64,000 nucleotides of DNA from the IMG/VR virus record IMGVR_UViG_651703099_000001, positions 8,333-72,332 of that record; one strand, given 5' to 3'. This stretch comes from a virus. Its lineage: Duplodnaviria; Caudoviricetes. The translations under genes and the position numbers were made by a program. How positions within the stretch are numbered: the stretch's first letter is position 1; each line of letters begins with the position of its first letter. Of the stretch, positions 21,107 through 58,065 are shown piece by piece. Below the pieces are notes generated by a model, which ran no database searches, was not told where the DNA came from, and was given only the letters and a program-made list of their open reading frames with translations.

Positions 21107-21144
21107 TGGCGTTACTTTCAACGGGTGAGACGCCCGATCACTAA

Positions 21145-21876
21145 ATGTCCGAAGAGAACCAAGCCACCGAGATGGCGGCAGAAGCTCCTCAATCCACCGC
21201 AGGCGCTCCGGCTGCCGATGAGATGATGCCTCGCTCTGAGGCTGAAAATCTCCTGAAGGCGCTTAAGGCAGAGCGCGAAGCCCGCAAACAGTACGAACGG
21301 GAACTCAAGGAGCAAAAGGCTCATCTTGAGAAGTTCGCGGAGATCAATCCCGACGAGTACACGAAGCTTCAGCAGGAAGCCGCGGAGGCTGCTCGACTGC
21401 AGGCACAATGGGGCGAAGCTCGTGATGCTATCGAGCAAAAGTATAGCGTGCAGGCAGAGGCTGCTCTAAAGGAGGCCCAGTCCGCCAAGGAGTCTCTGGC
21501 TGCCTACAAGAAGCGCTATGCTCTCGAGAAGGTCTTCAACGCTGCTGGTGGTCGCATTGACTCCGTAGATGGTATCTCCTTCTTCGACTTGATGGCCGAC
21601 CAAGTTGGCAATCGTTTCCGTCAGGAAGCCGATGGCTCTTTGACTGTAATCGATTCGCAAGGCGATCCGATCCTTGACAAAGAGAGCGGAAAACGCATCA
21701 GCCCGGAGGAGTACATGGCCTCGTTCAAGCTTCACCCCGTTTACGGCACCTTCTTTAAGGGGGCCAAGGGTTCTGGTGCTGGCATTGGCTACGGTGGCAC
21801 TGATGCCAACGGTATGGTCATCGAGGACCTGAGTGGGCTCTCTGCTGAAGAGATGTTCCAGCGTGCCTTTTCTTAG
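21145..21876 (+). CDS. capsid scaffolding protein
   Basis: Acidic coiled coil, KALKAEREARK, GSGAG near the C-terminus; upstream of the capsid gene. Confidence 0.8.
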   Translation: MSEENQATEMAAEAPQSTAGAPAADEMMPRSEAENLLKALKAEREARKQYERELKEQKAHLEKFAEINPDEYTKLQQEAAEAARLQAQWGEARDAIEQKYSVQAEAALKEAQSAKESLAAYKKRYALEKVFNAAGGRIDSVDGISFFDLMADQVGNRFRQEADGSLTVIDSQGDPILDKESGKRISPEEYMASFKLHPVYGTFFKGAKGSGAGIGYGGTDANGMVIEDLSGLSAEEMFQRAFS

Positions 21877-21887
21877 GCTGGTATGAC

Positions 21888-21897
21888 TGGTATACTG
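21888..21897 (+). promoter_or_regulatory. extended -10 promoter TGGTATACTG
   Basis: One of about 9 TGNTATACTG copies; precedes an HNH gene. Confidence 0.6.
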
Positions 21898-21918
21898 TAA
21901 GCAGTTACCCTGCTTGCG

Positions 21919-22437
21919 ATGAAACAGTCTCACCACCCCTTGTACCGCAGGTGGCGCAACATGATTGAAAGGTGCTACCTGCCCTGTCATAACTCCTACC
22001 ACAATTACGGTGGTAGGGGTATTTTTGTATGTGAGCGCTGGAGAGAGTCCAAGGGACGGGGAAGTCGTCAATGGGCGCCAGGCTTCCTTGCATTCCTTGA
22101 AGACATGGAGCCGACTTTCAAAAAGGGCCTACAGATAGAGCGCATCGATAACGATGGCCCCTACTCGCCCGAAAACTGTCGCTGGGCTACAGTCGAGGAG
22201 CAGCAGGCCAACAAGCGTCCCAAGCGCAAGTCGGGCACCTACAAGCCCTGTAAACTCAAAAAAGAACGAGATCTTCCTCGTTGGGTTTACAGGAACAGAA
22301 CTGGCGAGAAGTACTACGCAAAGGTCAAGCATGCAGACAAGTGGTACAGGACCCAATCTTACATCAACCCAGAAGACGCACACATTATGGCTTTAGCTCT
22401 TCGTCTAGAGCTTCGGGGTCGCGATATCTTTTCCTGA
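21919..22437 (+). CDS. HNH homing endonuclease with an AP2-like C-terminus
   Basis: [37 protein letters not shown]. Confidence 0.88.
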
Positions 22438-22468
22438 TGAACTTCTAACTTACTTCAAATTAGAAGGT

Positions 22469-22490
22469 GGGCCCGCGAGGGCCCTTTTTT
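22469..22490 (+). terminator. intrinsic terminator
   Basis: GGGCCC-GCGA-GGGCCC-T6. Confidence 0.85.
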
Positions 22491-22631
22491 GTGAATAGGT
22501 ATTATAGGTATAGATCACCCAGAAGGGAAGTTCCGAGATGGAATGGACTGGAGGGTGTCATGCCGACGCTTGCGCGAGGCTTGCGTAGGCAATTCACCCA
22601 ATCTTTGTTCATCCATCCTTAGGTAATTATC

Positions 22632-23534
22632 ATGGCATTGACACTGCTCGAAGCCCAGAAGCATGCTCGCACTCCCCAGGAACTGGCGGTTGTGACCGAG
22701 CTGGCTGCTGGCCCCCTGCTCCAGACCCTGCCTTTCCGTAACATCGAAGGCAACGGCCTTTTCTGGAAGCGTGAAGAAGCTCTGCCCGACGTGGGTTTCC
22801 GTAACTACAACGGCGCCCTGGCTGAGAGCTATGCTGAAGTGAGCCAGCAGTCTGAAAGTCTCAAGCTCTTCGGTGGCGACATCAAGGTTGATCGCGCTAT
22901 CGTGGACCTCGAGGGTGCTCAGGCCAAGGCTTACCAGATCCAGAGCCGCGTTCGCGCAATGCGTCTGGCTTGGGAAGCTCTGTTCATCAAGGGCGATTCC
23001 AACCAGTCCCCCTCCGAGTTCGACGGTCTGGCCGCTCGCATTAAGTCTGGCTCCAGCCAGTACTTCCAGAACGGCACCGCAGGCAACCAGGCACTGAACC
23101 TGGGCACCCTTGACGAAGCCATCGATGCTGTGGACGCCCAGGGCGGCCAAAAGTATCTGGTGATGTCGAAGTCCGCTCGTCGTGCCCTGAGCCGTCAAGC
23201 TCGTACCAACACTCAGATCGACATCGTTCGTAACGAGTTTGGCTACCAGCAGATGATTTATGCCGGCCTGCCCGTGCTCGAGCTGGATCGCGACCACAAG
23301 AACGTCGCTATCCTCGACGCTACCCCCACCAGCCAGGACCTGTATGTGGTGTCCTTCGGTAACGACCACCTGACCGGCATCCAGAACGGCGGCGTGTCCG
23401 TTCGTGAGCTGGGTGAAAGCCACAGCCAGCCTCAGCTCATCACTCGCGTTGAGTGGTACTGCGGCCTGGCTCTGATCAACGGCCGTGCAGCAGCTCGGGT
23501 TGCTGACTTCAACTCCAACCTCGACCCTTCCTGA
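22632..23534 (+). CDS. major capsid protein
   Basis: MALTLLEAQK, LPF, GGDIKVDRAI, EFDGL, TRVEWYCGLA; strong codon bias; follows the scaffold gene. Confidence 0.9.
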   Translation: MALTLLEAQKHARTPQELAVVTELAAGPLLQTLPFRNIEGNGLFWKREEALPDVGFRNYNGALAESYAEVSQQSESLKLFGGDIKVDRAIVDLEGAQAKAYQIQSRVRAMRLAWEALFIKGDSNQSPSEFDGLAARIKSGSSQYFQNGTAGNQALNLGTLDEAIDAVDAQGGQKYLVMSKSARRALSRQARTNTQIDIVRNEFGYQQMIYAGLPVLELDRDHKNVAILDATPTSQDLYVVSFGNDHLTGIQNGGVSVRELGESHSQPQLITRVEWYCGLALINGRAAARVADFNSNLDPS

Positions 23535-23555
23535 TCTAGTCTCCTAGATATCCTG

Positions 23556-23577
23556 GGGCCCTTCGGGGCCCTTTTTT
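23556..23577 (+). terminator. intrinsic terminator
   Basis: GGGCCC-TTCG-GGGCCC-T6. Confidence 0.9.
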
Positions 23578-23622
23578 CATGGCACAACCTTATTGGCACA
23601 ATACTTTATCCGCGAGCACCAA

Positions 23623-23937
23623 ATGCTAAGTCCTGCCATCAGGCAAAGGATCGAGTTTATCTGCAGCAGAATCAGGAACGGGGCTGATGTACCCTATGCA
23701 GATATGGTTTGGATTCAGAAATGGGCTGACCACAATCCAAGTGTTGCCACGTGGCTGAGACAGGCTCGGCGTTCAGCATTTCAGCAGGAGGCTGCCCCAG
23801 AGGGGATGGATTCATTTTGCCAGGCCATGGACATAGGAGAGCCGGATCCGTCTGACCACCTAATTGGACCACAGGATCCTGTAGAATTGGCGGAGTGGTT
23901 TCAGAACAAACAGAAATGGTTCAGGGGTCAGCAATGA
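23623..23937 (+). CDS. conserved cyanophage hypothetical protein
   Basis: MLS..R.R.EFIC..I..G..V...DM.W pattern recalled from cyanophages. Confidence 0.6.
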   Translation: MLSPAIRQRIEFICSRIRNGADVPYADMVWIQKWADHNPSVATWLRQARRSAFQQEAAPEGMDSFCQAMDIGEPDPSDHLIGPQDPVELAEWFQNKQKWFRGQQ

Positions 23938-23938
23938 T

Positions 23939-23948
23939 GGAAACCTAT
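23939..23948 (+). promoter_or_regulatory. putative late promoter GGAAACCTAT
   Basis: Recurrent motif 22 nt before the hli ATG. Confidence 0.6.
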
Positions 23949-23970
23949 AGCTTTCTTATTGCTTAAGATT

Positions 23971-24105
23971 ATGAATGAAGACAAAGCGCTCAAGCAGCAA
24001 CTTCGTATTGTTGAGCTTGTTAATGGTCGGGCTGCTATGCTTGGCGTCATTGCCGCCATCGGAGCTTACCTTGTTACCGGGCAGATTGTTCCCGGAATCT
24101 TTTAG
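23971..24105 (+). CDS. hli: high-light-inducible protein (HLIP), 44 aa, missing from the ORF track
   Basis: MNEDKALKQQLRIVELVNGRAAMLGVIAAIGAYLVTGQIVPGIF: ExxNGRxAMxG chlorophyll-binding motif and TGQIxPGIF tail. Confidence 0.95.
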   Translation: MNEDKALKQQLRIVELVNGRAAMLGVIAAIGAYLVTGQIVPGIF

Positions 24106-24217
24106 AGAGATTTTCTGGTGAGGCCCCGTCCGTTGATTCGGCATAATAAGGTAGCTAGCCGCGCCACTACTCTGCGGGGCGGGCTACCTCTCAACCTTAA
24201 CATCTGGAGTTTTTTCA

Positions 24218-24586
24218 ATGGCTGCACGTTCTTCTGGTCTTTTCCCTCGCGAAGGCTTTAACCTCGACGACGGCTGCAAGATCACCGCTACCGCTACCGG
24301 TACCGATGCTCCCATCACCCTGACCTCCGCTAAGACCATTCGCGTGGTCGTGATCGGCGCCAGCGGCATCGACGACGCTGGTACCAACAAGATCACCGTG
24401 ACCCTCGGCGGTCAGGCCGTGGTGTTCAACGCTGCTGACCTCGATGGCAACGGCGTGGGCATCGCTCATGTCCGTGGCGCTCTGTGTGACGCAGACGACA
24501 ACGATGCGTTCTACACCCTGGGTGGCACTGCTGCTATCGCTGGTGGCGTTTACCTGGAGCTGGTTGACGGCCCCGGCCGCGGCTGA
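24218..24586 (+). CDS. probable head decoration/cement protein
   Basis: Capsid-like codon bias, beta-rich 122 aa, late motif at 24140. Confidence 0.55.
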   Translation: MAARSSGLFPREGFNLDDGCKITATATGTDAPITLTSAKTIRVVVIGASGIDDAGTNKITVTLGGQAVVFNAADLDGNGVGIAHVRGALCDADDNDAFYTLGGTAAIAGGVYLELVDGPGRG

Positions 24587-24643
24587 TCTAGCTCTCTGAC
24601 AACTGAATAGGAAAGCTAAGGGGTCATTACGGCCCCTTTTTTT

Positions 24644-24991
24644 ATGGCGCACCTCAAGAAGATGCCGACCTACTTCGTCAAGGGCGAGGAGCGTCGTGCT
24701 GCATATTACACCGTCGATGCCCGCGAGTTGATCGAAGCAGGCTTCGTAGAAGAAGGCGCAGAGCCTGGTAAGAAGATCGAGGCTCACGAGCCCAAGCCTG
24801 TTCCCGAGACTCTGGTAGAGGCTGGTATTGATGCTTTCGATACTGAGGCCGTCAAGGATGAGGGCAGTGAGACCGACCTTGAGGAAATGACCAAGGCTGA
24901 GCTTCTGGAATTTGCCATGGAGCGCGGTCTGGATCTGCCAAACAATGAGCGCAAGGCTGACATTCTTGCCGAGTGCCGCAAACTTGTTTGA
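24644..24991 (+). CDS. head-associated protein with a C-terminal HeH/Rho-N-like domain
   Basis: LEEMTKAELLEFAMERGLDL...KADIL. Confidence 0.6.
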   Translation: MAHLKKMPTYFVKGEERRAAYYTVDARELIEAGFVEEGAEPGKKIEAHEPKPVPETLVEAGIDAFDTEAVKDEGSETDLEEMTKAELLEFAMERGLDLPNNERKADILAECRKLV

Positions 24992-25050
24992 GACTGACTA
25001 GGCTTTTAGGATAAGCTTAAGGAACCCTAGCTTGCTAGGGTTTTTTTGTT

Positions 25051-25224
25051 ATGGATGTAACATACACTACTGGTCCTCGATACATCAATGGTGTCAACAT
25101 CGATGCAGACGTGCTGGCCTCTGTTGCAGAAGAGCATGAAGTGAGCATTTCTGATCCAGTGACTGGGTTGAAGGGGCTTGGCTACGAACCAGGTCAAAAG
25201 AATTTAGACGGCGGTGATTTGTGA
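25051..25224 (+). CDS. 57-aa hypothetical protein ending LDGGDL (missing from the ORF track)
   Basis: ATG 20 nt after late motif GGAACCCTAG (25021); fills the gap. Confidence 0.6.
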   Translation: MDVTYTTGPRYINGVNIDADVLASVAEEHEVSISDPVTGLKGLGYEPGQKNLDGGDL

Positions 25225-25274
25225 CGTAAATTTGAGAAAAATTGCGGTACCCTAGTTGGTACGGATCACCGATT

Positions 25275-25586
25275 ATGATTCCTGAATTCGTAATCGGCTT
25301 GGTTGGTACGGTTGTACTTGGCTGGGGTACTTTTACGTGGCAGCGTTCGGAACGCGCAATTGAACTTGCCAAGGCTGCGCAAGATTCTACGGGGAAACTT
25401 GAATTGAAACTTGCAGAACAGTATCTTACTAAAGGCGAGTTTGAAGCGCAGATGGAACGCTTGTTCAGCACGCTAAATCGCTTTGAAGAGAAGCTTGATA
25501 ACTATGCGTTCAGCCAAGCCCAGACGATCAGTAATTTACAAGGCAAAGTTCAAGCCTTAGACGGGAGGAAGGATTTCAATGGCTAA
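25275..25586 (+). CDS. single-TM coiled-coil protein (possible lysis accessory)
   Basis: N-terminal hydrophobic helix, YLTKGEF, coiled coil; late motif at 25246. Confidence 0.55.
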   Translation: MIPEFVIGLVGTVVLGWGTFTWQRSERAIELAKAAQDSTGKLELKLAEQYLTKGEFEAQMERLFSTLNRFEEKLDNYAFSQAQTISNLQGKVQALDGRKDFNG

Positions 25587-25893
25587 GAAGCGTTCTACTG
25601 CTAACTTCTACAAAAGCAATCCAGAAGCCTATGCTAAGAAGCTTGCTTATGACAAGAAGCGTAACTCGAAGCCTAGCCGCAAGAAGTACCGTGCTGAACT
25701 TGCTCGTGAACGCCGGGCTCGTGGAATCATGGGCAAGGGCGGTCCTGACGTAAGCCATCAAGCCGGCGGCGGATTTAAGCTTGAGAATGCCAAGAAGAAC
25801 CGTGCCCGCAACGGGGCTGGTGGCAAGGCCAGGCTTGGCAATGGGACAGGTACCCGGAAGTCGTCGACAAAGTACACGCCGCGCAAGAAGTAA
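25579..25893 (+). CDS. Lys/Arg-rich protein with a degenerate HNH-like DVSH..NRARN motif
   Basis: Highly basic composition; motif. Confidence 0.6.
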   Translation: MAKKRSTANFYKSNPEAYAKKLAYDKKRNSKPSRKKYRAELARERRARGIMGKGGPDVSHQAGGGFKLENAKKNRARNGAGGKARLGNGTGTRKSSTKYTPRKK

Positions 25894-26003
25894 TGCCTTT
25901 TAAGTCACCCGAACAGCGCAAGTACTTGTACGCCGCTAAGCCAGCAGTGGCGAAGAAGTTTGCCGCTCACCAAAAAAGGAAACCTAAGAAAGGCAAAAAG
26001 TGA
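25893..26003 (+). CDS. 36-aa basic peptide MPFKSPEQRKYLYAAKP...
   Basis: TAATG coupling; MPFKS..Q pattern common in phage small proteins. Confidence 0.6.
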   Translation: MPFKSPEQRKYLYAAKPAVAKKFAAHQKRKPKKGKK

Positions 26004-26036
26004 TGCCGTTACCTCTTCTTACCGCACAGCAGGCCA

Positions 26037-26327
26037 ATGGCACCCAAAAAGGACGCAAGACTAACCAAAAACGGGCTAAGCGGATACAACAAGCCAAAGC
26101 GAACCCCAAGTCATCCAACAAAAAGTCACGTCGTTCTCGCTAAAGAAGGCAACAAGACCAAGCTGATCCGCTTCGGTGAGCAGGGCGCCAAGACTGCTGG
26201 CAAGCCCAAGGCTGACGAGTCTGATCGCATGAAGCAGAAGCGTGCAAGCTTTAAGGCCCGCCACGCCCGCAACATTGCCAAGGGCAAAATGAGCGCTGCC
26301 TGGTGGAGTAGCCGCGTGAAATGGTAG
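26037..26327 (+). CDS. basic conserved phage protein
   Basis: KLIRFG..G, RASFKARH, SAAWWS..W motifs. Confidence 0.7.
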   Translation: MAPKKDARLTKNGLSGYNKPKRTPSHPTKSHVVLAKEGNKTKLIRFGEQGAKTAGKPKADESDRMKQKRASFKARHARNIAKGKMSAAWWSSRVKW

Positions 26328-26372
26328 ACGGTGGTAAGTGGTATACTGGAGGGAGAGATCCCTCCTTTTTTC

Positions 26373-26822
26373 ATGGCCGCACATCACTCCTACTGGGACA
26401 AGCCGTGCCCCAGTTGCGGAATTGTCCGCACCATTCGGAAAGACAGACCCGTAACCCACTGCAGATCCTGTGCCAGCAAGGCCCGTGCTGCCCTCAGGAA
26501 AGAGCAGGGGCTATCGGTCGGTCTCGAGCCGAAATACGGCCTGGGTGTCAAGAAGGATCCCACCTACAAGGGCGCCTACAGCAGCTACACCAAGGCTAAG
26601 CAGCGGTGTAAGACCAACCACAAAGGTGCCTACGCCAACATCGAGTTCCGTTTCGAGTCGTTCGACCAGTGGTTTGCCGAGCTTGGCCCTCGCCCTGAAG
26701 GTATGACGGTCGACCGTATCGACAATAACGGCCACTACGAACCAGGCAATGTTCGCTGGGCCACCCATGAGCAGCAGTGCGTCAACAGGGGCCCCAGGGG
26801 CAGGCATACTAAGACATGGTAG
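26373..26822 (+). CDS. HNH homing endonuclease with an N-terminal zinc ribbon
   Basis: CPSC/CRSC, GPRPEGMTVDRIDNNGHYEPGNVRWAT; TGGTATACTG at 26339. Confidence 0.85.
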   Translation: MAAHHSYWDKPCPSCGIVRTIRKDRPVTHCRSCASKARAALRKEQGLSVGLEPKYGLGVKKDPTYKGAYSSYTKAKQRCKTNHKGAYANIEFRFESFDQWFAELGPRPEGMTVDRIDNNGHYEPGNVRWATHEQQCVNRGPRGRHTKTW

Positions 26823-27004
26823 CCCCCAAGCCCAGTAACCATACTGCCGTTCTCAGCCTGTTGGCAGTGCTGATGTGTTCACACCTGACATTCCTGGGTC
26901 TGAACGCAAAGAACAGTCCCGAGGGACCGCAGCTTTTCCAGCGTGCCTCCGAGACCTACGTTGCCATCCTGCTGGCTCTACTGACACCCCTCGCGCCTAA
27001 GTAG
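26816..27004 (+). CDS. small 2-TM protein (holin candidate)
   Basis: Two hydrophobic segments; late motif GGCATACTAA at 26803. Confidence 0.45.
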   Translation: MVAPKPSNHTAVLSLLAVLMCSHLTFLGLNAKNSPEGPQLFQRASETYVAILLALLTPLAPK

Positions 27005-27162
27005 TGGAACACCTGCGACCGATCCTTGACACGATGATCGGCCTGGCACTGATGGAGGTGATTGTTAAGCCTGTTGTCGTGCGCTACAGCAAGAAACTGC
27101 TTAAACTTGTCGACAACCACGTCAAGTGGATTCCTGACTGGCTATACAAAAGGCCAGGATAG
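27004..27162 (+). CDS. 52-aa hypothetical protein
   Basis: TAGTG coupling; open to TAG 27162. Confidence 0.45.
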   Translation: MEHLRPILDTMIGLALMEVIVKPVVVRYSKKLLKLVDNHVKWIPDWLYKRPG

Positions 27163-27333
27163 CTCAACATCCCCTTGCCAGGCATCGTCTGACAGGGGGA
27201 TTGCTTTTGCGTAAGTGCTAAACACCTCGAACATGGTCTCCGTGGTCAGGCCACACTGCTTGGCTGCATTTGGTACGTTGCTTTTACCGCGGAACAGCAG
27301 GTCACAGGCTTGTCTCGTCGTCAGCTTTGTCAT
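27142..27333 (-). CDS. small HTH-like hypothetical protein
   Basis: NVPNAAKQCGLT helix-turn-helix pattern. Confidence 0.5.
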   Translation of the reverse strand: MTKLTTRQACDLLFRGKSNVPNAAKQCGLTTETMFEVFSTYAKAIPLSDDAWQGDVELSWPFV

Positions 27334-27613
27334 ACCAGGGCGCTTTAATCTCTAGCATACCACCAAGCAGTTCCTGGGCCTTACTGCCGTCAGGTTCGTG
27401 CTCGATGATGATGGGCTTTGGTTCATCCTTGGCCCATTGTTCTTGAATCTCTTCGACCTGGCGATCCACGTCCTGCATGGTCGCGCCAGTCCTGTATTCG
27501 ACCCAGAAGTCGAACCAGTAGTCATGTACCTTCTGGAGCCACGGGTTTTGGCGATAGTACCCGTAACCCCATAAGATGCGAATGATCTCTACAGCGAGAC
27601 CGCGCCAGTTCAC
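27302..27613 (-). CDS. hypothetical protein
   Basis: Coupled to 27613..27753 by TAGTG. Confidence 0.55.
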   Translation of the reverse strand: MNWRGLAVEIIRILWGYGYYRQNPWLQKVHDYWFDFWVEYRTGATMQDVDRQVEEIQEQWAKDEPKPIIIEHEPDGSKAQELLGGMLEIKAPWYDKADDETSL

Positions 27614-27753
27614 TAGGGCTTCTCGGGGCGAGGGAATGCCTTCATTAGGGCGTTCAGGATGGCTTCCACGACACCGTTACCTTTCAGCGGTGTGTATGGG
27701 ATTATTTCTGAGGAGATGAACAGGATCAGACCTGCGAGAGCGGCGAATTCCAT
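27613..27753 (-). CDS. 46-aa membrane peptide (holin-like) MEFAALAGLILFISSEIIPYTPLKGNGVV...
   Basis: Hydrophobic N-terminus with an SE...LKxNG pattern; minus-strand late motif GGCAAACTAT at 27774-27783. Confidence 0.6.
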   Translation of the reverse strand: MEFAALAGLILFISSEIIPYTPLKGNGVVEAILNALMKAFPRPEKP

Positions 27754-27776
27754 GAGGCGAGCTATATTCGGCCATA

Positions 27777-27841
27777 GTTTGCCAATCGGCATCCTAGACC
27801 TGACGGCCCTGGTTTGCCAATCGGCATCCTAGACCTGACGG
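27777..27841 (+). repeat. perfect 30-bp direct repeat GTTTGCCAATCGGCATCCTAGACCTGACGG x2
   Basis: Copies at 27777-27806 and 27812-27841, each containing late motif GGCATCCTAG. Confidence 0.95.
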
Positions 27842-27854
27842 GTTAGTGGCCGCA

Positions 27855-29234: not shown

Positions 29235-29241
29235 GGCTTTA

Positions 29242-29251
29242 GGCATACTAT
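29242..29251 (+). promoter_or_regulatory. putative late promoter GGCATACTAT
   Basis: Recurrent motif before ATG 29275. Confidence 0.7.
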
Positions 29252-29274
29252 GAAAGATCATTCCCTGAGTTGCT

Positions 29275-30399
29275 ATGTCCAACGCTATTCGCATTAAAAA
29301 AAGAGCGGCTGGCGGCGCTGCCGGAGCTCCATCAGCACTTCGCAGTTCTGAGCTAGCTTTTAACGAGCAGGATCTAACGCTTTATTACGGCTCTGGCGAC
29401 GACGGCAGCGCCAATGCCACGTCAATCATTGCAATCGCAGGCGCGGGGGCGTATGTCTCCCTGGGCACTACTCAGACCGTCTCTGGCGACAAGACATTTA
29501 CAGGCTCGGTTGACCTGACAGGCGCAACCGCCACCGCTGCAACTCAGGCCACTGGCACCAACAACACAACGATCGCCACAACGGCCTTCGTTGCTGACGC
29601 TATCTCCGGGGTCTATGTTGACCCCCTGACCACCGACGGTGACATCGTTGTCCGATCGGGTGGAAGCACGACTCGACTGGGTATTGGATCCGCTGGCCAG
29701 GTCCTGACCGTTGTTGGTGGCATTCCCGCATGGCAGGACACGGCAAATGCAGGGACCCTCAACATCGCAGCCGACGGCGCATTCTCTGGCTCTGTCGACC
29801 TTGATACCCAGACGCTGTCGATCGTCGGCGGGACTGGCCTGACTACATCTGGCTCAGGGCAAACGATCACCGTCGACCTAGACGACACCGCCGTTACTCC
29901 AAACTCCTACGGAGCGGCTGGCAGTGTTGCAACATTTACTGTTGACCAGCAAGGCCGTCTGACAGCGGCGGGAACCACCGCAATCTCTATCACCAGCTCA
30001 CAAGTTAGTGACCTGGGCACGACCCTCGGGGACTACGTCAGTAAGACCGCCACTGGCACCGAGTCAATGGTCGGCTCCCTGACCATCGGCGGGAACCTGA
30101 CCGTCAACGGCACTACAACCACCATCAACACTCAGGAAGTGTTGGTCGAGGACAAGAACATTGTCCTTGGCAACGTCACCACGCCGACAGACGTCACGGC
30201 AGACGGTGGTGGTATCACGCTTCTCGGCGCTACCAACAAGACCATTAACTGGGTTGATGCTACCGATGCCTGGACCCTTTCGGAGCATGTCAACATAGCG
30301 GCCACCAAAGAATACCGCATGAACGGTACAGCGGTTCTTGCCTACAACGGCGCAACTCGGGTCTTGGATAACGTAGAGATCGACGGCGGGACCTTCTGA
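29275..30399 (+). CDS. fibre protein
   Basis: IRIKKR..ELAFNE N-terminus, TTIATTAFV, GNLTVNGTTTTIN..VEDKNI, C-terminal IDGGTF. Confidence 0.85.
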   Translation: MSNAIRIKKRAAGGAAGAPSALRSSELAFNEQDLTLYYGSGDDGSANATSIIAIAGAGAYVSLGTTQTVSGDKTFTGSVDLTGATATAATQATGTNNTTIATTAFVADAISGVYVDPLTTDGDIVVRSGGSTTRLGIGSAGQVLTVVGGIPAWQDTANAGTLNIAADGAFSGSVDLDTQTLSIVGGTGLTTSGSGQTITVDLDDTAVTPNSYGAAGSVATFTVDQQGRLTAAGTTAISITSSQVSDLGTTLGDYVSKTATGTESMVGSLTIGGNLTVNGTTTTINTQEVLVEDKNIVLGNVTTPTDVTADGGGITLLGATNKTINWVDATDAWTLSEHVNIAATKEYRMNGTAVLAYNGATRVLDNVEIDGGTF

Positions 30400-30412
30400 T
30401 TTTCGCTAAAAC

Positions 30413-39408: not shown

Positions 39409-39438
39409 TTGACAGGCCCTCTTTTTTATTGGTATACT
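39409..39438 (+). promoter_or_regulatory. sigma70-type promoter TTGACA-18-TATACT embedded in a terminator hairpin
   Basis: TTGACA 39409-39414, TGG-TATACT 39430-39438; RBS GGAGGT 39460. Confidence 0.75.
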
Positions 39439-39471
39439 CGCAGAGTAATCAAACCTCATGGAGGTAACGCA

Positions 39472-40257
39472 ATGACCGATCCCATCACCGCCTGGCTCAA
39501 TAACGCTGCTCGCTACGAGCTTCTGACAGCAGAGCAGACCATTGAACTGGGCCGCAAGATTCAAGCCGCTGAGGAAGGCTCCCCTGAGCGCATCAAGCTG
39601 GTCAACAAGCTTTGTCAGCACAACCTGCGCCTGGTGGCCAAATTCACCCGCGCCTACATGAAGGGCGGCACCCGCAAGCTCACCTGGGGTGGCGACGAGA
39701 CCATGGACCTCCTGCAAGAGGGCTACTTCGGCCTCCGTCGTGCCGCCAACAAGTTTGACCCCGAGCGCGGCTACACCTTTGCTACCTATGCCAACGCCTG
39801 GGTTCGCCAGGCCCTCGGCAAGTATCATGTTGACAAGCTGAGCCTGATCCGAGTTCCCGAGTCGTCGGCCCGTGAGATCTTCTACTACGACGCTCATGGC
39901 AAGCCCCGCAACAGCAAAACCTCAGCATGGGTAGCAGACGCAGCCCGCGCTGCTCGAGCCGCTTATGGCCTGGTGTCTTATGACAACAAACTGGCCGACG
40001 AGGAGCATTCGGTAATCGACCTGCTCTCTGACGAAAACCGCGTCCATGACGGTAAGTGTGAGATTTCTTATGATCGCTACGACCAGCTCATGGAGGATGT
40101 CGGCATTGACGAAGCTACCCGTCGGGTGATCATCTCATACTGCAAGCGCGGTAATCTCGACACTGCGATGGCCAAGCACAAGGTCCCCCAGACCAGCAAG
40201 GCCCGCGCCCATATCCGCGGCGCTATTGCCCAGATCAAAGCCCACTGCGGCCAGTAA
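39472..40257 (+). CDS. RpoD-like sigma factor (regions 1.2 and 2 intact, 3 and 4 degenerate)
   Basis: LLTAEQTIEL, HNLRLVAK, DLLQEGYFGL, KFDPERGYTFATYANAWVRQAL, IRVP. Confidence 0.9.
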   Translation: MTDPITAWLNNAARYELLTAEQTIELGRKIQAAEEGSPERIKLVNKLCQHNLRLVAKFTRAYMKGGTRKLTWGGDETMDLLQEGYFGLRRAANKFDPERGYTFATYANAWVRQALGKYHVDKLSLIRVPESSAREIFYYDAHGKPRNSKTSAWVADAARAARAAYGLVSYDNKLADEEHSVIDLLSDENRVHDGKCEISYDRYDQLMEDVGIDEATRRVIISYCKRGNLDTAMAKHKVPQTSKARAHIRGAIAQIKAHCGQ

Positions 40258-40680: not shown

Positions 40681-41088
40681 ATGAAAACATGCAACTTTTG
40701 CGGACAAAGCAAAGCTCTGGATCTGTTCGCTGTCGACAAGCAGGCTAGGAGTGGAACCAAGTCATACTGCAAGTCCTGCGCGTCCGAAAAAAGCAAGGAG
40801 TGGAGGACAAGAAACCGTGCCAACGCACGCAAGCACAAGTGCGGCCAGCTTCGTCGGGATTACGGCATAACGCTTGAACAGTACGAAGAGATGGACCAAA
40901 AGCAGGGTGGCGTATGCTCGATCTGTTCCTCCCGCCCTGGGAGCCGCAGACTCTCCGTGGACCACTGCCATTCGACTGGAAAGGTTCGCGGTCTCTTGTG
41001 CAGCAACTGCAACACCGCCATTGGCCTGCTGGGCGATAACCGTGCTATACTGCAGGCTGCCATCACCTACCTGGAGGCACACTCATGA
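40681..41088 (+). CDS. endonuclease VII-like (homing) nuclease
   Basis: YGITLEQY, QGGVCSIC, VDHCHSTGKVRGLLCSNCN. Confidence 0.9.
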   Translation: MKTCNFCGQSKALDLFAVDKQARSGTKSYCKSCASEKSKEWRTRNRANARKHKCGQLRRDYGITLEQYEEMDQKQGGVCSICSSRPGSRRLSVDHCHSTGKVRGLLCSNCNTAIGLLGDNRAILQAAITYLEAHS

Positions 41089-41534
41089 ACCTACAAGAAG
41101 CCGAAATGGCTCCTGGCTACTGCGGTCTTCTTTTTGACGAGACCCCATTACTGACTCATGCGAATGTACGGGCTTTTGTTTGGCCGATCCTCCTTTATCG
41201 CGGGGCTGTACGGCCCACTGAGGTGGTTGCCTCCCTCACGTCGGTCTGCTCGGTCGAAGACCTTAAGACGGGCGCCTGGGACCCGTTCCTGGGTGATTAC
41301 GGTGACCGTAGCCGTGCGGAGCTCCTGGTTGATGAGGTTCTTGGCGAGATGGTTGGCGAGGGTCTTTGCCGCTACAACGAGGATCAGGACATCTGGGTTC
41401 TGACCCTGGGGGCCAACCGCCAGAACGTCCCTCACGTCATCAACGTGGTGACCGCGCTGGATGCTATGATGCCCCAGCACCTGCTGGCCGACCTTGCCAA
41501 GGAGGAGCGCGACCGTCTGCCTGTCCCTTTTTGA
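41085..41534 (+). CDS. hypothetical protein
   Basis: ATGA overlap; TGCTATACTG at 41043. Confidence 0.6.
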   Translation: MNLQEAEMAPGYCGLLFDETPLLTHANVRAFVWPILLYRGAVRPTEVVASLTSVCSVEDLKTGAWDPFLGDYGDRSRAELLVDEVLGEMVGEGLCRYNEDQDIWVLTLGANRQNVPHVINVVTALDAMMPQHLLADLAKEERDRLPVPF

Positions 41535-41848: not shown

Positions 41849-42044
41849 ACTTTCACCCGCCGCAATCGCAGTTGATGACGCCTTGGCTGCTTGCATTCAG
41901 CTTCAAGGCGAAATAGTACGGGCTCGCCCTCTCGCCGCCGCCGCCTTGCGGGCTGCTGCGGATCACGTTGACCACGACTGGTCAGGCTTTAACTGCGTTG
42001 ATGCTTTGTGCGAAATCGCCGCCGAGCTTGAAGCCAATGACTGA
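41841..42044 (+). CDS. conserved cyanophage hypothetical protein
   Basis: MTELSPAA..AAALRAAAD..IAAELE. Confidence 0.65.
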   Translation: MTELSPAAIAVDDALAACIQLQGEIVRARPLAAAALRAAADHVDHDWSGFNCVDALCEIAAELEAND

Positions 42045-42264
42045 TCGAAGCAACAAGCGTGTTCGTCGGGAGCGCTACCAGCGCAACCTCGAGCGCGACA
42101 TCCAGGACCATCAGGATCCGCCCTCTGGCGGCATGTACTGTGTGGTCGACAAGAAGACCAAGGAAAAGCACAAGGGCCTGAGCTTCAAGCAGGCTACGGC
42201 CCTGTGGAACACGCTGGAGAGTGCCATCATCCTCCAGGATGAGCATGTGAGGCGCAATGGGTAG
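42037..42264 (+). CDS. hypothetical protein
   Basis: Overlap-coupled ORF. Confidence 0.55.
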   Translation: MTDRSNKRVRRERYQRNLERDIQDHQDPPSGGMYCVVDKKTKEKHKGLSFKQATALWNTLESAIILQDEHVRRNG

Positions 42265-42520
42265 GTTTCTGAAGGACGGTGAGTTTAAGCCCAAGCCTTC
42301 GACCCTGAAGGCCAGCGAGCGCATGCAGCAATCGCCAACCCCATTGCCAATCTTCCGCCGTAACACCAACGTGGAGGTGTTTCTTGGCGCTGGCTGGGGC
42401 AAAGGCACCGTTGAGCATAGTGATAAGGTTCGTTGCGTGGTCTTCCTCAAGATTGGCCAACGGCGAGTAACCTGTTATGATGCTCGTAATATCCGCGAGT
42501 ACACCCCGAACAAAAAATGA
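42257..42520 (+). CDS. hypothetical protein (SH3-like pattern)
   Basis: Overlap-coupled ORF. Confidence 0.55.
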   Translation: MGRFLKDGEFKPKPSTLKASERMQQSPTPLPIFRRNTNVEVFLGAGWGKGTVEHSDKVRCVVFLKIGQRRVTCYDARNIREYTPNKK

Positions 42521-53885: not shown

Positions 53886-54118
53886 CCCACCTTTACATCT
53901 ACCTGTTCCTGGGGGCCCTGGTGGTCCTCTTCCCGAAGGATGCTCTGCTGCTTCCTCATTGGGTCGAGGCCCAGGTTAAACTTCATTACATCAACGCCAA
54001 GATGTTCTGGTGCGCCTGGACCATGCACCGTAAACTAAAGAAGGACTTCGGCGCCCAAGGGTGGCCAGTCCCGCCTTTCAAGTTCATCCCCATCTGGGAC
54101 CGCGAGGAATTCAAATGA
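53882..54118 (+). CDS. hypothetical membrane-anchored protein
   Basis: ATGA overlap. Confidence 0.55.
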   Translation: MTHLYIYLFLGALVVLFPKDALLLPHWVEAQVKLHYINAKMFWCAWTMHRKLKKDFGAQGWPVPPFKFIPIWDREEFK

Positions 54119-54267
54119 GCTACAACGCCATCCGCAAAAACGGCAAGTCCTACGCCCGCGACGGCCACACCCTTGGAGATTTCGCCAAGCGCACCTCCAT
54201 CGGCAACGGTAAGCGCAAGCGGGGCTCCTTTAACGGCAAGAAGAAGTATCGCGGTCAGGGCCGTTAA
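54115..54267 (+). CDS. small basic cyanophage protein ending KKYRGQGR
   Basis: KRTSIGNG..KYRGQG motif. Confidence 0.65.
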   Translation: MSYNAIRKNGKSYARDGHTLGDFAKRTSIGNGKRKRGSFNGKKKYRGQGR

Positions 54268-54440
54268 TGCTTCCCACTTTTTCTAACCTTTACCGCCTGA
54301 ACCTCATGGCTTGTAATAAACCAGACCACCTGCGCTGCCCCAAGTGCAAAAAGCAGGAGGAAGACCAATCCACTGAGGCCTTCCGTAAGGCCAACGAAGA
54401 AAACCCATCTCGTCTCGAGGCCCGTATCTACGATGTTTAA
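54267..54440 (+). CDS. CP12-like peptide lacking the C-terminal Cys pair (alternative start 54306)
   Basis: C-terminus ANEENPSRLEARIYDV versus CP12-type YC.ENP.A.ECRIYD; missing from the ORF track. Confidence 0.6.
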   Translation: MLPTFSNLYRLNLMACNKPDHLRCPKCKKQEEDQSTEAFRKANEENPSRLEARIYDV

Positions 54441-54624
54441 GTTTCTTTTTGGCCGTACACGTGGCCGCCAACTGTATCGGGTGCTCTACGTCTTGAAAGG
54501 TAGTGACTTTTTCCTGACCGCTGTCGTGGCCGCAACTAGCGAATACGAGGCTCAGAGGGAGTTTGACCGCCTGTATCCTACGGACTACGTCCGCATTCCT
54601 TACAGCACAAAGTTAGTTTCATGA
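54433..54624 (+). CDS. hypothetical protein
   Basis: Overlap-coupled. Confidence 0.55.
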   Translation: MFKFLFGRTRGRQLYRVLYVLKGSDFFLTAVVAATSEYEAQREFDRLYPTDYVRIPYSTKLVS

Positions 54625-54926
54625 TCCCAGTAGTAGGGCCAGTGGTGCAAAACCCTTCCATCCGTCATCCCGCGGTGGACATAGCCTGCATCCCAGGTTC
54701 CGAAGTTCGTGCTATGGCCAATGGTCATGGCACTTTTCACTGGGACCATGACATGGGCTGGGTGTTCACTCAGGGCAACATCTCGATCAGCCACCTTGAT
54801 CACAAGGGAGTCGATCGGTTCTATACTGTTGGCGAGGTCATCTCAGCCTGCGGATCCACGGGTCGCCTGTCGGCTGGGCCGCACGTCCACATCGAAGGGC
54901 CACCTGAAGTCCTATCACGTTTCTAA
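54621..54926 (+). CDS. minimal M23-family peptidase
   Basis: HPAVD (HxxxD), GSTGRLSAGPHVH (HxH). Confidence 0.75.
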   Translation: MIPVVGPVVQNPSIRHPAVDIACIPGSEVRAMANGHGTFHWDHDMGWVFTQGNISISHLDHKGVDRFYTVGEVISACGSTGRLSAGPHVHIEGPPEVLSRF

Positions 54927-55013
54927 ATGTTTCACAGGGGGCCACGAGCCCCCTTTTTGCTGCTATACTGGTAGAGCCGAAAGGCATCCTAACCCTGCGT
55001 CCTTAAACCAGAT

Positions 55014-57314
55014 ATGACCGAATTCCGTCCAACGGCTCCCTCCGCTGAAACCGTGTTTCTTCGGACCTACAGCCGCCGCAAGGCAGACGGTACTCGGGAG
55101 AATTTTGAAGAGGCGATGCTCCGCACGGTCAACGACATTGCGGAGATTGGCAAGCTCACCCAGGAGGAATACGCCCTGGTCCGTGAGCAGGCCCTCGCCC
55201 AGCACTCCTTCCCCTCTGGCCGCGCCTTCTGGGTAGCGGGCACCGAGTGGGGGAAGAAGCCTGAGAATTTCTCCGGGTACTACAACTGCACATCCACCCA
55301 CATGACCGATACCACTGCCTTCGGGCTGCTGGTGGACCTGGCCATGCAGGGCTCTGGTACTGGCGCCGTCCTCGAGCAGGACGTGATCGACAAGCTTCCG
55401 CCCGTAGTGCGCAACCTGGAGATCAAGCACGTCTCCGAGGTTGGCAAGGTGGTACCAGGCCGCGAAGATACCAAGTGCCTGTGGGACCACGAGGATCTGT
55501 TCATCATGGTGGGCGACTCCCGCAAGGGCTGGCGCGATGCCTACATGTCCCTGATCCATGAGGCCACCAGGAAGGAGGAGGGCACCACCCGCGTGTACGT
55601 GCTCCTGGACAACGTGCGTTCCTCGGGGGAAAAGCTCAAGGGCTTCGGCGGCACTGCCAACCCCGTGAAGCTGGGTGACATGTTCTACAAGGTCGCCGAC
55701 ATCCTGAACGGTGCCGTGGGCCGCAAGCTCAACACCATCGAGGCTTGCCTGTTGATCGACGAGGCTGCTACCTGCATCGTGGCTGGCAACATCCGCCGCT
55801 CTGCTGGCATGCGTCAATTCTCCCAGGATGACGAGCTGGCCGCTACCGCCAAGCTTGGCCTGTACACACAGGACGAGGAAGGCAACTGGCGTGTGGATCC
55901 CAAGAAGGAGGCCCTGCGCATGGCCAACCATACCCGCTGCTACCACACCAAGCCCACCTACGAGGAGGTTGAGGCCGCCGTGCGGATGCAGTTCCAGTCT
56001 GGTGAGGGCGCCATCCAGTACGTCCCCGAGGCCGTAGCCCGTGCCAATGCCGACCTGCTAATCAACGACCTGACCAAGCAGCGCTTCCTGCGTGAGTACA
56101 CCACCAGGGGGCGCAAGGCTGCACAAAGCTACCTGCTGACCTGTGCTCAGTCCCTGGGCCTGAAGCTCACCACTCGCGAGCTTGAGCACCGCATGGATCG
56201 CTACGGCCTGAACCCCTGTGGCGAGATCATCGGCCGCGACTTCCACTGCAACCTGGCCGAGGTGCACCTGAACACCATCGATCCGAGTGACTACCAGGCT
56301 CTGTACGATGCGTTCTACGCCGCTGGCCTACAGGTAGCATCCCTGCTGCAGCACGAGTTTGTCCACGAGCGGTACCAGTACAGCCGCAACATCGACCCCA
56401 TCGTCGGTGTCAGCTTCACTGGCCTGTTCGATTTCTACGTGCATGCCTTCGGGTCTGAGTGGTTGAAGTGGAACATGAAGGGCCGCAAGGCTGGCCGCGC
56501 TGCAACTATTTTTGAAGCTGCAGAGCGTGACTACCTGACCAAATTCCGCGAAGCTGCCCACGAGGGTGTGAAGGCCTACTGTGCCAAGCACCTGAAGCGC
56601 CTGCCCAACCGCATCACCACCGTGCAACCTGCAGGCACCAAGAGCCTGCTCACAGGCGCCTCTAGCGGCTGGCACCCGCCCAAGGCCCAGCGCTTCATCC
56701 GTCGCATCACCCTGGGTGTACAGGACCCCCTGGTGCCCGCACTGATCGAGTACGGCTACAAGGTAATCCCTGCCCAGTCTGCCCGTGATGAGCATGGCAA
56801 CCTGCTGGACGACATCACCGATCCCCGTGTCCACGAGGTGCTGGTGGAGATCCCGACCGCCGTGTCCTGGGCTGACATGCCCGGCTGTGATGAGTTCGAC
56901 CTGAACAAGTTGCCCGTGGAGGCCCAGTGGGGTATCTACATGAATGTGCAGCGCTACTACACCGATCACAACACGTCGGCCACCATTGAGCTGCGTGAGA
57001 AGGAGATCCCCAAGCTGGCCAAGCTCATCTACGATGATATCCAGGCCGACGGTGGCTACATCTCCGCTGCCCTCCTGGCCCGCTTCGACGCCAACGCCAC
57101 CTTCCCGCGTCTGCCGTTCGAGCCGATCACCAAGGAGGAGTACGACAAGCAGATCCTGCCCCGTCAGGTGGTAGAGATGACCGACGACCGCTCGCTGCTG
57201 GACATCCTCCAGAAGTACGACAGCTCTGAGTGGACTATTGAGTCGGTGGCTGGCTGCGCCAACGCTGCCTGTCTGGCTAAGGCCGAGAAGGATGAGCAGG
57301 AGGGTAAAGCGTGA
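55014..57314 (+). CDS. nrdJ: class II (B12-dependent) ribonucleotide reductase
   Basis: RTYSR, FPSGR, YNC, GNIRRSA, NPCGEI, CNLAEVH, TTVQPAGT, C-terminal Cys pair; TGCTATACTG at 54961. Confidence 0.95.
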   Translation: MTEFRPTAPSAETVFLRTYSRRKADGTRENFEEAMLRTVNDIAEIGKLTQEEYALVREQALAQHSFPSGRAFWVAGTEWGKKPENFSGYYNCTSTHMTDTTAFGLLVDLAMQGSGTGAVLEQDVIDKLPPVVRNLEIKHVSEVGKVVPGREDTKCLWDHEDLFIMVGDSRKGWRDAYMSLIHEATRKEEGTTRVYVLLDNVRSSGEKLKGFGGTANPVKLGDMFYKVADILNGAVGRKLNTIEACLLIDEAATCIVAGNIRRSAGMRQFSQDDELAATAKLGLYTQDEEGNWRVDPKKEALRMANHTRCYHTKPTYEEVEAAVRMQFQSGEGAIQYVPEAVARANADLLINDLTKQRFLREYTTRGRKAAQSYLLTCAQSLGLKLTTRELEHRMDRYGLNPCGEIIGRDFHCNLAEVHLNTIDPSDYQALYDAFYAAGLQVASLLQHEFVHERYQYSRNIDPIVGVSFTGLFDFYVHAFGSEWLKWNMKGRKAGRAATIFEAAERDYLTKFREAAHEGVKAYCAKHLKRLPNRITTVQPAGTKSLLTGASSGWHPPKAQRFIRRITLGVQDPLVPALIEYGYKVIPAQSARDEHGNLLDDITDPRVHEVLVEIPTAVSWADMPGCDEFDLNKLPVEAQWGIYMNVQRYYTDHNTSATIELREKEIPKLAKLIYDDIQADGGYISAALLARFDANATFPRLPFEPITKEEYDKQILPRQVVEMTDDRSLLDILQKYDSSEWTIESVAGCANAACLAKAEKDEQEGKA

Positions 57315-57487
57315 CGCCTCAAGAAGAGGTGAGGGAGGCTTACGCCTCCTTTGCCAACGCCTACAGGGTGTACGAAATGAAAGTAGGCAAGGGCTACCGC
57401 TTCAACGGTGACCTTGACTGCGACCTGGTCCAGGGCGCCTGGAACAAGTACCTACGACTACGCAAACAATACGGAGACCACCGGTGA
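57311..57487 (+). CDS. 58-aa hypothetical protein
   Basis: GTGA overlaps at both ends. Confidence 0.55.
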   Translation: MTPQEEVREAYASFANAYRVYEMKVGKGYRFNGDLDCDLVQGAWNKYLRLRKQYGDHR

Positions 57488-57993
57488 GTACTATTTCCGA
57501 CTGGCAAATTGCCCAACTGGCCCAGCATCAAGATCTGATCCTGCCTTACAACCCCGAGCAGGTGAACCCTGCCAGCTACGACGTGACCCTAGGCCCCAAG
57601 ATCCTCATCGAGGAACAGGAAGGCTGGAGGGAGGTTGACATCTCCATTCCTGGCTTCCACATGGGTCCTGGGTGCTTCGTACTGGCCCACACGGTCGAGG
57701 TCGTCAAGATCCCGCCGTACCTGGAATGCACCTTCCAGCTCAAGAGCAGCCGTGGCCGAGAAGGCTACGAGCACGCTCTCGCTGGCTACATCGACCCAGG
57801 CTTCGAGGGGCAGGTCACCCTCGAGCTGACCAACCTCAACAAGTACCACTGGCTACCCCTGCAGGCTGGTATACGGATTGGTCAGTTACGGTTCATGAAG
57901 ATGGACCAGCCACCTGCTAGGCCGTACAACCTAACAGGCCGCTACAACAGGGACCTGGGGGGCAGTGCCCAGCAAGGGTTGACGGAACCCTAA
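57484..57993 (+). CDS. dcd: dCTP deaminase (true end probably TGA 57982 if G6 at 57957-57962 is G5)
   Basis: NPASYDVTL, KSSRGREG, AGYIDPGFEGQVTLEL, IGQL. Confidence 0.92.
   Translation: MSTISDWQIAQLAQHQDLILPYNPEQVNPASYDVTLGPKILIEEQEGWREVDISIPGFHMGPGCFVLAHTVEVVKIPPYLECTFQLKSSRGREGYEHALAGYIDPGFEGQVTLELTNLNKYHWLPLQAGIRIGQLRFMKMDQPPARPYNLTGRYNRDLGGSAQQGLTEP
57984..57993 (+). promoter_or_regulatory. putative late promoter GGAACCCTAA for the portal gene
   Basis: Late motif isolated in the middle region, directly before the structured portal leader. Confidence 0.65.
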
Positions 57994-58065
57994 CTAATGA
58001 GCGGTGGCGTGATGCGCCGATCAGCAAACCTTTTTGGCGCGACGCCACCATTCGCAGCGACTGCA

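Follow-up and report, generated by a model that had tools for sequence, protein, structure and literature searches.

The 64-kb stretch of DNA analysed here (the window) is part of the 72,332-bp virus record IMGVR_UViG_651703099_000001 of a cyanosiphovirus, in which hairpins capped by a G-H-G-A-Y loop mark four head-assembly genes, namely those for small terminase, portal, scaffold and major capsid protein. The nearest named relatives by DNA similarity are the Synechococcus phages S-CRES1, S-CRES2 and S-CRES3, which share 72–80 % identity over the head genes; the Prochlorococcus siphovirus P-SS2 is a more distant relative. Tailed phages usually coordinate their head genes via a single operon. 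In the present group of cyanophages, which is abundant in marine and estuarine waters and includes P-SS2, the terminase, portal and scaffold-capsid genes are tens of kilobases apart, located among replication and tail genes, and these scattered genes bear the same RNA tag.

Head genes and their hairpins

Gene identities in the window were assigned from PHROG profiles, which also revealed tail, fibre, lysis and replication genes. The names scaffold, capsid and portal, given previously in an interpretation made without database searches (the sequence-only reading), were upheld by these profiles. The head genes are as follows:

21145–21876, + strand: scaffold (phrog_206)
22632–23534, + strand: major capsid protein (phrog_212)
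46159–46785, + strand: small terminase (PHROG profile)
46787–48310, + strand: large terminase (PHROG profile)
58066 (start ATG; open reading frame (ORF) open from 57997), + strand: portal (phrog_145)

The portal profile match begins at residue 31 and the annotated starts in relatives align with ATG 58066, which was therefore taken as the portal start. This places three hairpins within a 72-nt portal leader that follows the stop codon of the dCTP deaminase gene at 57993. The hairpins of the four genes are:

21122–21136, + strand: scaffold leader hairpin, CGGGT-GAGAC-GCCCG, 5 pairs including one G·U, ending 8 nt before ATG 21145
21163–21179, + strand: scaffold hairpin 2 in codons 7–12, GCCACC-GAGAT-GGCGGC, with one A·C mismatch
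22530–22544, + strand: capsid leader hairpin 1, GTTCC-GAGAT-GGAAT
22567–22585, + strand: capsid leader hairpin 2, loop GCGAG at 22574–22578, imperfect, with G instead of Y as fifth loop base in the window phage
46144–46154, + strand: small-terminase hairpin, GGA-GTGAT-TCC, 3-pair stem, ending 4 nt before ATG 46159
58002–58019, + strand: portal leader hairpin A, CGGTgGC-GTGAT-GCGCCG, requiring a one-base bulge
58035–58047, + strand: portal leader hairpin B, TGGC-GCGAC-GCCA
58054–58064, + strand: portal leader hairpin C, GCA-GCGAC-TGC, 1 nt before ATG 58066

The six hairpins described in the sequence-only reading were all recovered from the window sequence at their positions. Two members were not among them, capsid hairpin 2 (loop 22574–22578) and the small-terminase hairpin (46144–46154). 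Scaffold, capsid and portal were retained from the proposed three-gene set, which small terminase extends to four genes. Most of these genes possess two or three hairpin copies; the second scaffold copy is located at about +18 to +35 relative to the start.

Alternative folds were found for two of the leaders. Capsid hairpin 2 of the window may instead form an 8-pair stem (22568–22575 with 22583–22590). The best single-sequence fold of the portal leader is one long helix (57994–58052; −34.8 kcal/mol, z −3.3) formed by the complementary regions of hairpins A and B; its pairing is not clearly kept in relatives, and the local hairpins A and B were therefore preferred.

The capsid leader comprises, besides its two hairpins, a further helix that encloses hairpin 2, the whole lying 50–100 nt 5' of a Shine-Dalgarno-like site:

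22553–22557, + strand: GGGTG, invariant in 57 of 57 capsid leaders
22595–22599, + strand: CACCC, pairing partner of GGGTG in the capsid-leader alignment

This GGGUG:CACCC helix is 99.6 % paired across the 57 leaders and is devoid of covariation. An upstream CACCC/CCC (22516–22520) provides an alternative partner for GGGTG or a nearby GGG, in a small helix that is 75 % paired; a switch between the two pairings of GGGTG is possible.

Motif counts within the window alone are weak evidence, and a single genome would not suffice. GNGAY hairpins with a stem of at least 3 pairs number 37 on the + strand and 20 on the − strand; with at least 4 pairs, 20 were found on the + strand, where the frequency of pairing around pentamers in general predicts about 10.5, and 4 on the − strand.

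Conservation and specificity of the hairpins

When viral contigs were searched with the capsid protein as query, 80 loci were obtained, most of which also contain the scaffold gene. Following removal of exact duplicates and of loci short of upstream sequence, the window, S-CRES1, S-CRES3 and these loci provided 57 distinct capsid leaders; 50 distinct leaders were aligned for scaffold and 9 for portal. In the alignments with S-CRES1 and S-CRES3 each hairpin is kept and its stem is altered, e.g. CGGGT/GCCCG (window) versus CAGGG/CCCTG (relative) for scaffold, or GTTCC/GGAAT versus TTGGCC/GGCTGA versus CGTTTC/GAGGCG for capsid.

The scaffold leader hairpin is 93 % paired across the 50 leaders, with double changes in all six pairs, a covariation score reached by none of 500 shuffles, and a closing pair that occurs as GC, CG, AU, UA and UG. 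Scaffold hairpin 2 is 72 % paired, with double changes in five of six pairs. Among the 57 capsid leaders, hairpin 1 is 93 % paired (double changes in 5/5 pairs) and hairpin 2, aligned by column, 96 % (4/4 pairs). The capsid covariation score was likewise reached by 0 of 500 shuffles, and pairing dropped to 39–49 % when the partner was slid by 1–3 columns. Many G·U pairs were observed on the + strand in both scaffold and capsid stems. Since the stems covary with G·U pairs on the + strand and the loop is fixed, the element is under selection as RNA of the sense strand.

Within the loop, G1, G3 and A4 are invariant in 57/57 capsid leaders and in all 110 pooled hairpins; they also stay fixed in the scaffold and portal leaders, where the stems covary freely. 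Among 116 distinct hairpins, the second base is U in 46, A in 46, C in 24 and G in none, and the fifth is U or C in 104 and A in 8, yielding the consensus G-H-G-A-Y. RNAalifold pairs G1 with Y5 to leave an N-G-A triloop, and the data fit a pentaloop or a triloop alike.

A scaffold leader hairpin with a stem of at least 4 pairs is present at −45 to −5 in 67 of 69 loci, and a coding-region hairpin with at least 3 pairs in 31 of 69. All 57 capsid leaders have at least one hairpin and 53 have at least two; at least two were also detected in each of the 9 distinct portal leaders. Portal hairpin A has covarying equivalents in relatives (TGGC/GCCA, GGAAGT/GCTTCT and TGGAGGC/GCTTCTA), and hairpin B is nearly invariant among them. 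The small-terminase hairpin, the weakest member of the set, is kept in S-CRES3 (GGA-GAGAT-TCC) and S-CRES1 (AGA-GAGAT-TCT) and was found in 12 of 14 distinct leaders, with the stem variants AGA/TCT, GAC/GTC and ATGAC/GTCAT; in the last of these the start codon occupies the loop and 3' arm, and only two terminase leaders have the start codon inside the hairpin. In the distant P-SS2, GGGC-GTGAT-GCCC is located 11 nt before the scaffold ATG, and the capsid leader contains GGC-GTGAT-GCC, followed by GGGTG and then by AGGGC-GAGAG-GCTCT. Compensatory changes, conserved unpaired bases and constant position at the same genes, i.e. the general hallmarks of a conserved structured cis-regulatory RNA, are all displayed by these hairpins.

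The hairpins are moreover specific for the head genes. Across the 46 loci for which the starts of both genes were available, 137 hairpins occur in the 8,970 nt of scaffold and capsid leader windows (15.3 per kb); the + strand of the remainder contains 19 in 230,618 nt (0.08 per kb), a density about 185-fold lower, these loci being related and the counts hence not independent. The − strand of the same loci has 22 hairpins overall (0.09 per kb), corresponding to background level.

A covariance model trained solely on 110 hairpins from relatives, to which the window contributed none, was run unfiltered over the whole 72-kb genome. The scaffold and capsid leader hairpins rank first and second genome-wide (17.1 bits each); portal hairpin B ranks 6th, the scaffold coding hairpin 7th and portal hairpin C 14th among 22 matches at E up to 10, and portal hairpin A was not found in this whole-genome run. 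Single matches are weak (E 0.1–10), as expected for 17 positions. The third-best match is a 7-pair hairpin with loop GAGAA (57752–57768, + strand) within the gene for dCTP deaminase and roughly 300 nt 5' of the portal start; it has an equivalent in S-CRES3 and none in S-CRES1.

BLAST mapping of the window hairpins onto S-CRES1 and S-CRES3 proved too insensitive (the capsid hairpin remained unaligned), and orthologous leaders (−150 to +100 around starts) of the window's genome, S-CRES3 and S-CRES1 were compared instead, with the capsid gene entered by hand. A GNGAN hairpin is kept in all three genomes for exactly four genes, i.e. scaffold, capsid, portal and small terminase. None of the remaining 63 patterns of this loop form is kept at more than one gene, and the mean over all 64 patterns is 0.12.

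Several expectations of the sequence-only reading can be judged by these results. Its observation that stems differ while loops are conserved holds among relatives. The enrichment at head genes that a covariance-model scan was to reveal is evident from the scaffold and capsid leaders heading the whole genome, and the possibility that such hairpins are equally frequent elsewhere did not materialize in the related loci, given the density difference stated above. Its proposal of an RNA operator regulon was correct in positing a shared, selected RNA signal on dispersed head genes that is absent from tail leaders, and was too narrow in confining membership to three genes.

Promoter-like boxes, terminators and leader spacing

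A box of the form T[A/C]GGCAT[A/C]CTA occurs on the + strand with 22 matches at one mismatch versus 10.7 expected, a number reached by no shuffle. In relatives it is found directly 3' of intrinsic terminators, ahead of terminase, portal and capsid genes. The boxes and terminators of the head units in the window are:

21095–21105, + strand: promoter-like box TAGGCATACTA 5' of the scaffold leader, conserved in 50 scaffold leaders
22469–22490, + strand: intrinsic terminator of the scaffold-HNH unit, just 5' of the capsid box; same arrangement in relatives
22496–22506, + strand: promoter-like box TAGGTATTATA 5' of the capsid leader
46127–46135, + strand: promoter-like box GGTAAACTA 5' of small terminase
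57983–57994, + strand: degenerate promoter-like box CGGAACCCTAAC, overlapping the dCTP deaminase stop and aligning with GGCAAACTAAC of S-CRES1 and S-CRES3, where a terminator precedes it
59678–59700, + strand: intrinsic terminator of the portal unit, 8 nt after the portal stop codon

The HNH unit owes its name to a homing-type endonuclease gene between scaffold and capsid, which is absent from the scaffold-capsid junction of S-CRES1 and S-CRES3; the terminator of the scaffold unit in the window is therefore located 3' of the HNH gene. Genes for two sigma factors were also identified:

21919–22437, + strand: HNH endonuclease (homing-type)
39409–40257: sigma factor (PHROG profile)
48500–49120, + strand: phage sigma factor adjoining the large terminase (phrog_36098)

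From its position and sequence, we infer that the box is a promoter element, and it is probably read by the phage sigma factor adjoining the terminase (48500–49120). The P-SS2 genome paper describes the orthologue of this factor as a group 3 sigma factor that is likely regulon-specific. Intrinsic terminators end the scaffold-HNH, capsid and portal units, and the next genes have promoter boxes of their own. The portal terminator overlaps a near-consensus sigma-70-type promoter, TTGACA-18-TATACT (59678–59712, + strand), from which the genes 3' of portal seem to belong to a promoter class other than that of the box units.

In total, 16 window genes possess the box. Hairpins are found at five of these leaders, the fifth being a weak 3-pair A/U-G·U match 45 nt inside ORF 919–1464, and the tail-fibre genes lack them, as the sequence-only reading had stated for tail gene leaders. 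The 11 hairpin-free genes comprise tail-fibre and other virion genes, endolysin and ribonucleotide reductase; ten of their leaders are 9–24 nt long and one is 69 nt. Box-to-start distances in the head genes are 39 nt for scaffold, 125 nt for capsid, 21 nt for small terminase and 74 nt for portal, which bears out the long leaders previously ascribed to scaffold, capsid and portal. The head genes have the appearance of typical late units in which a hairpin module was placed ahead of the start codon, after the point where the transcript would begin.

Two further box-bearing regions deserve mention. The 69-nt leader (24138–24218, + strand) belongs to ORF 24218–24586; it has no G-H-G-A-Y hairpin and is the sole long one outside the head genes. 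The box TTTGCCAATCGGCATCCTAGACCTGACGG occurs twice (27786–27796 and 27821–27831, + strand) as a 35-nt tandem duplicate 5' of the fibre gene at 27846, and small minus-strand ORFs diverge from this region.

Spacing relative to the start codon is tightly constrained. In 49 of 50 distinct scaffold leaders, 5–8 nt separate the 3' end of the hairpin from the ATG; the scaffold hairpin is located 10–16 nt after the box. The terminase loop begins 3–14 nt, and the loop of portal hairpin C 9–15 nt, before the start; the terminase and the last portal hairpins end 1–5 nt before the start codon. No Shine-Dalgarno sequence was found in the scaffold, terminase and portal leaders, save for the GGAG in the terminase stem, which could double as one.

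Possible function and candidate readers

The hairpins are a real RNA-level element under selection and specific to four head genes. The same hairpin on dispersed head genes, with none in tail leaders, fits a common trans-acting reader, i.e. a regulon, and the head genes probably share one post-transcriptional control, as suggested by the comparison of leaders. The form of control that we favour, with about even confidence, is a translational operator shared by the messages for small terminase, portal, scaffold and major capsid protein; for both the protein nature of the reader and its action on translation we rely on inference from leader architecture. According to this model, each message would start at the phage-type box, probably via the phage sigma factor, and one to three hairpins (3–7 bp stem of any sequence, G-H-G-A-Y cap) would sit in the longer leader of the head gene. 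A trans-acting factor would recognize the fixed loop and thereby alter translation of the message by repression or activation. Without a Shine-Dalgarno sequence, initiation would need an open start region, which a stabilized hairpin would close and an unfolded one open. Action on translation is favoured because the scaffold, terminase and portal hairpins end 1–8 nt before the start, where the 30S subunit binds, because the second scaffold copy is positioned in codons 7–12, and because the AUG is inside the hairpin of some terminase leaders. The possibility that the loop base-pairs with the 3'-terminal tail of 16S rRNA was considered as well and dropped, since the second loop base varies freely.

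A possible though rather unlikely alternative is that the hairpins serve message stability or processing, either as 5'-proximal protection from decay by host RNase E or J or as a cleavage site, the loop being conserved because it stabilizes the fold or serves a nuclease. Their position 10–16 nt after the promoter-like box, hence near the probable 5' end, agrees with such a role, as does the GNRA-type loop sequence G-N-G-A, and the records of S-CRES1 and S-CRES3 annotate an RNase III gene. However, the window ORF at the RNase III position has no match in P-SS2, so that RNase III cannot be the common reader, and portal and terminase are not high-abundance products. Stability alone moreover leaves unexplained the invariant G, G and A, the lack of G at the second loop base, the copies in coding regions and the spacing of 5–8 nt to the start.

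Less probable still is a function analogous to boxB, in which an arginine-rich antiterminator or elongation factor would bind the nascent hairpin and modify RNA polymerase in the manner of lambda N at nut sites. The boxB hairpins of lambda and P22 nut sites possess a G-N-R-N-A pentaloop, which adopts a GNRA-tetraloop-like fold with one base flipped out and is read by the arginine-rich motif of N. They resemble the present hairpins in being short, with a stem of free sequence and a fixed, purine-rich pentaloop whose first base is G, in following soon after a promoter and in occurring in several units per phage; a small core phage protein of 75 amino acids (aa) with an arginine-rich N-terminus is present here, too, and the gene that overlaps its own encodes an SH3/KOW-like protein whose fold weakly matches those of Spt5 and NusG. 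In contrast to boxB, the loop is G-H-G-A-Y, with U or C as last base in 104 of 116 hairpins, and sequence searches of Pfam and the PDB linked the 75-aa protein to no N protein. The head units are closed by their own terminators and each next unit has its own putative promoter, so that read-through would have no obvious target; together with the hairpin position, this would tend to favour translational control over antitermination. The constrained spacing to the start codon would be needless for a nut site, and one copy is located within the scaffold coding region.

An element acting as DNA, e.g. as part of a composite promoter or as a single-stranded DNA hairpin read by the phage sigma-polymerase holoenzyme or by a protein that binds DNA, for instance small terminase, is very improbable. 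Hairpin promoters exist in phage N4, and the fixed distance of 10–16 nt from the promoter-like box would suit such an element, but the frequent sense-strand G·U pairs would be A·C mismatches on the other strand, further copies are situated 40–50 nt downstream, some of them in coding sequence, and the − strand shows background density only (0.09 per kb). An origin by chance, or as a side effect of composition or protein coding, to which the 37 + strand hairpins with stems of at least 3 pairs in the window and the covariance-model E of 0.1–10 for single matches might point, can practically be dismissed in view of the 185-fold enrichment, covariation beyond 500 shuffles, uniqueness among 64 loop patterns and the non-coding location of most copies.

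Several points weigh against the shared translational operator. The capsid hairpins are 50–100 nt away from the start codon, so that merely blocking the ribosome site would not account for capsid. A head needs 12 copies of portal and hundreds of capsid, a ratio that a single control does not obviously set. The terminase stem has 3 bp and little covariation, and it overlaps a GGAG that is possibly just a Shine-Dalgarno sequence. Related contigs are not independent lineages, by which the counts of conserved hairpins are inflated. One metatranscriptome run provided 8 short contigs of relatives (85–95 % alike) over the coding parts of scaffold and capsid and none over the leaders, and such contigs cannot show transcript starts. 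Finally, Pfam and PHROGs screens of the window proteins revealed no RNA-binding domain.

Known phage translational operators include the coat protein-replicase hairpin of MS2/R17, the sites of T4 RegA and the Com-mom system of Mu. These share with the present hairpins a small size and a position at or beside the start codon; there, the loop is read by a phage protein, which in the case of RegA serves several messages. The MS2-type operator has the start codon within the hairpin, a bulged purine and a 4-nt loop, whereas the hairpins described here have a 5-nt loop, no conserved bulge, no bulged A and no AUUA loop, and the targets differ in being head-assembly genes of a tailed double-stranded DNA cyanophage. 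No homologue of the MS2, RegA or Com readers appeared in the Pfam and PHROGs screens of window proteins, in which no search was aimed at them.

The scaffolding protein of P22, according to the published account, autoregulates its translation and thereby ties control of the scaffold message to assembly. This precedent is an analogy: four genes share the signal here, nothing links the signal to the scaffold protein, and the N-terminus of the latter is acidic. We know of no defined RNA operator for P22 scaffold autoregulation. The present results speak neither for nor against free scaffold protein, the binder proposed in the sequence-only reading, and none of them points to portal:scaffold:capsid stoichiometry as the purpose of the hairpins.

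Candidate readers were sought among the core proteins of the window genome, S-CRES1, S-CRES3, P-SS2 and two near-complete related contigs, which include four small proteins without assigned function:

41085–41534: 149-aa core protein
42037–42264, + strand: 75-aa protein with conserved arginine-rich N-terminus NKRxRRERYQRNLER
42257–42520, + strand: 87-aa protein with an SH3/Tudor/KOW-like beta-barrel model (pLDDT 87)
60085–60435: 116-aa protein of a conserved large family, poorly folded model (pLDDT 67)

As all are co-occurring core genes, co-occurrence does not separate them. The 75-aa protein, with homologues in S-CRES1, S-CRES3, P-SS2 and both related contigs searched, is one candidate reader on account of its N-terminus, whose composition is reminiscent of the arginine-rich motifs with which lambdoid N proteins bind RNA; it matched no Pfam family at E up to 10 and no PDB sequence, N peptides included. 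The 87-aa protein, present in 6 of 6 genomes compared, is a second candidate on the basis of its structural model, which has weak fold matches (E about 7e-3) to Tudor/Agenet domains, Spt5 and NusG, the fold being a generic beta-barrel; its atlas look-alikes DUF3104 and PSHCP are leads only. The genes for the 75-aa and 87-aa proteins overlap by 8 nt, and their homologues also overlap in S-CRES1 and S-CRES3 and are about 72 kb apart in P-SS2. The 116-aa protein obtained 160 matches at E up to 0.001, the best 120 of 160 having at least 54 % identity, and no atlas match.

Only tentatively, and as an unlikely proposal in its full form, we suggest that a small phage-encoded RNA-binding protein, at best the 75-aa protein and perhaps together with its SH3/KOW-like neighbour, reads the hairpins as a head-assembly regulon and gates translation of terminase, portal, scaffold and capsid together, apart from tail genes with the same promoter. 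If one reader indeed served all four genes, the system would represent a compact and experimentally tractable case of post-transcriptional coordination of virus assembly. If this reader were a dedicated small protein, it would add a timing or checkpoint layer beyond transcription; to our knowledge, such a post-transcriptional layer of head assembly has not been described for tailed phages.

The hairpin is a new RNA element that would belong to a familiar class, the loop-specific hairpin operators, and constitutes an RNA family with clear rules, i.e. any stem and the loop G-H-G-A-Y. No description of the motif was found in the literature searched, and the available text of the P-SS2 genome paper contains neither 'stem-loop' nor 'regulatory motif'. 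A 2023 survey of over ten thousand candidate structured RNAs of viruses and phages (PMC10690425) contains, in the part available, unnamed candidates 5' of capsid, portal, terminase and scaffold genes; compared by the domain names in its tables only, it may include the present motif. Rfam 15 families were searched over the whole window at gathering scores, which is the scan that covered the portal and terminase leaders, and the region of the scaffold and capsid leaders (20900–22700) at E up to 10, where weak unrelated matches well below gathering scores were obtained. The only family detected at gathering score in the window is the Glutamine-II riboswitch aptamer (RF01704; 62466–62524, + strand; 66 bits versus a gathering score of 33), located directly 5' of a 62-aa ORF (62530–62718) with a weak DUF4278 match.

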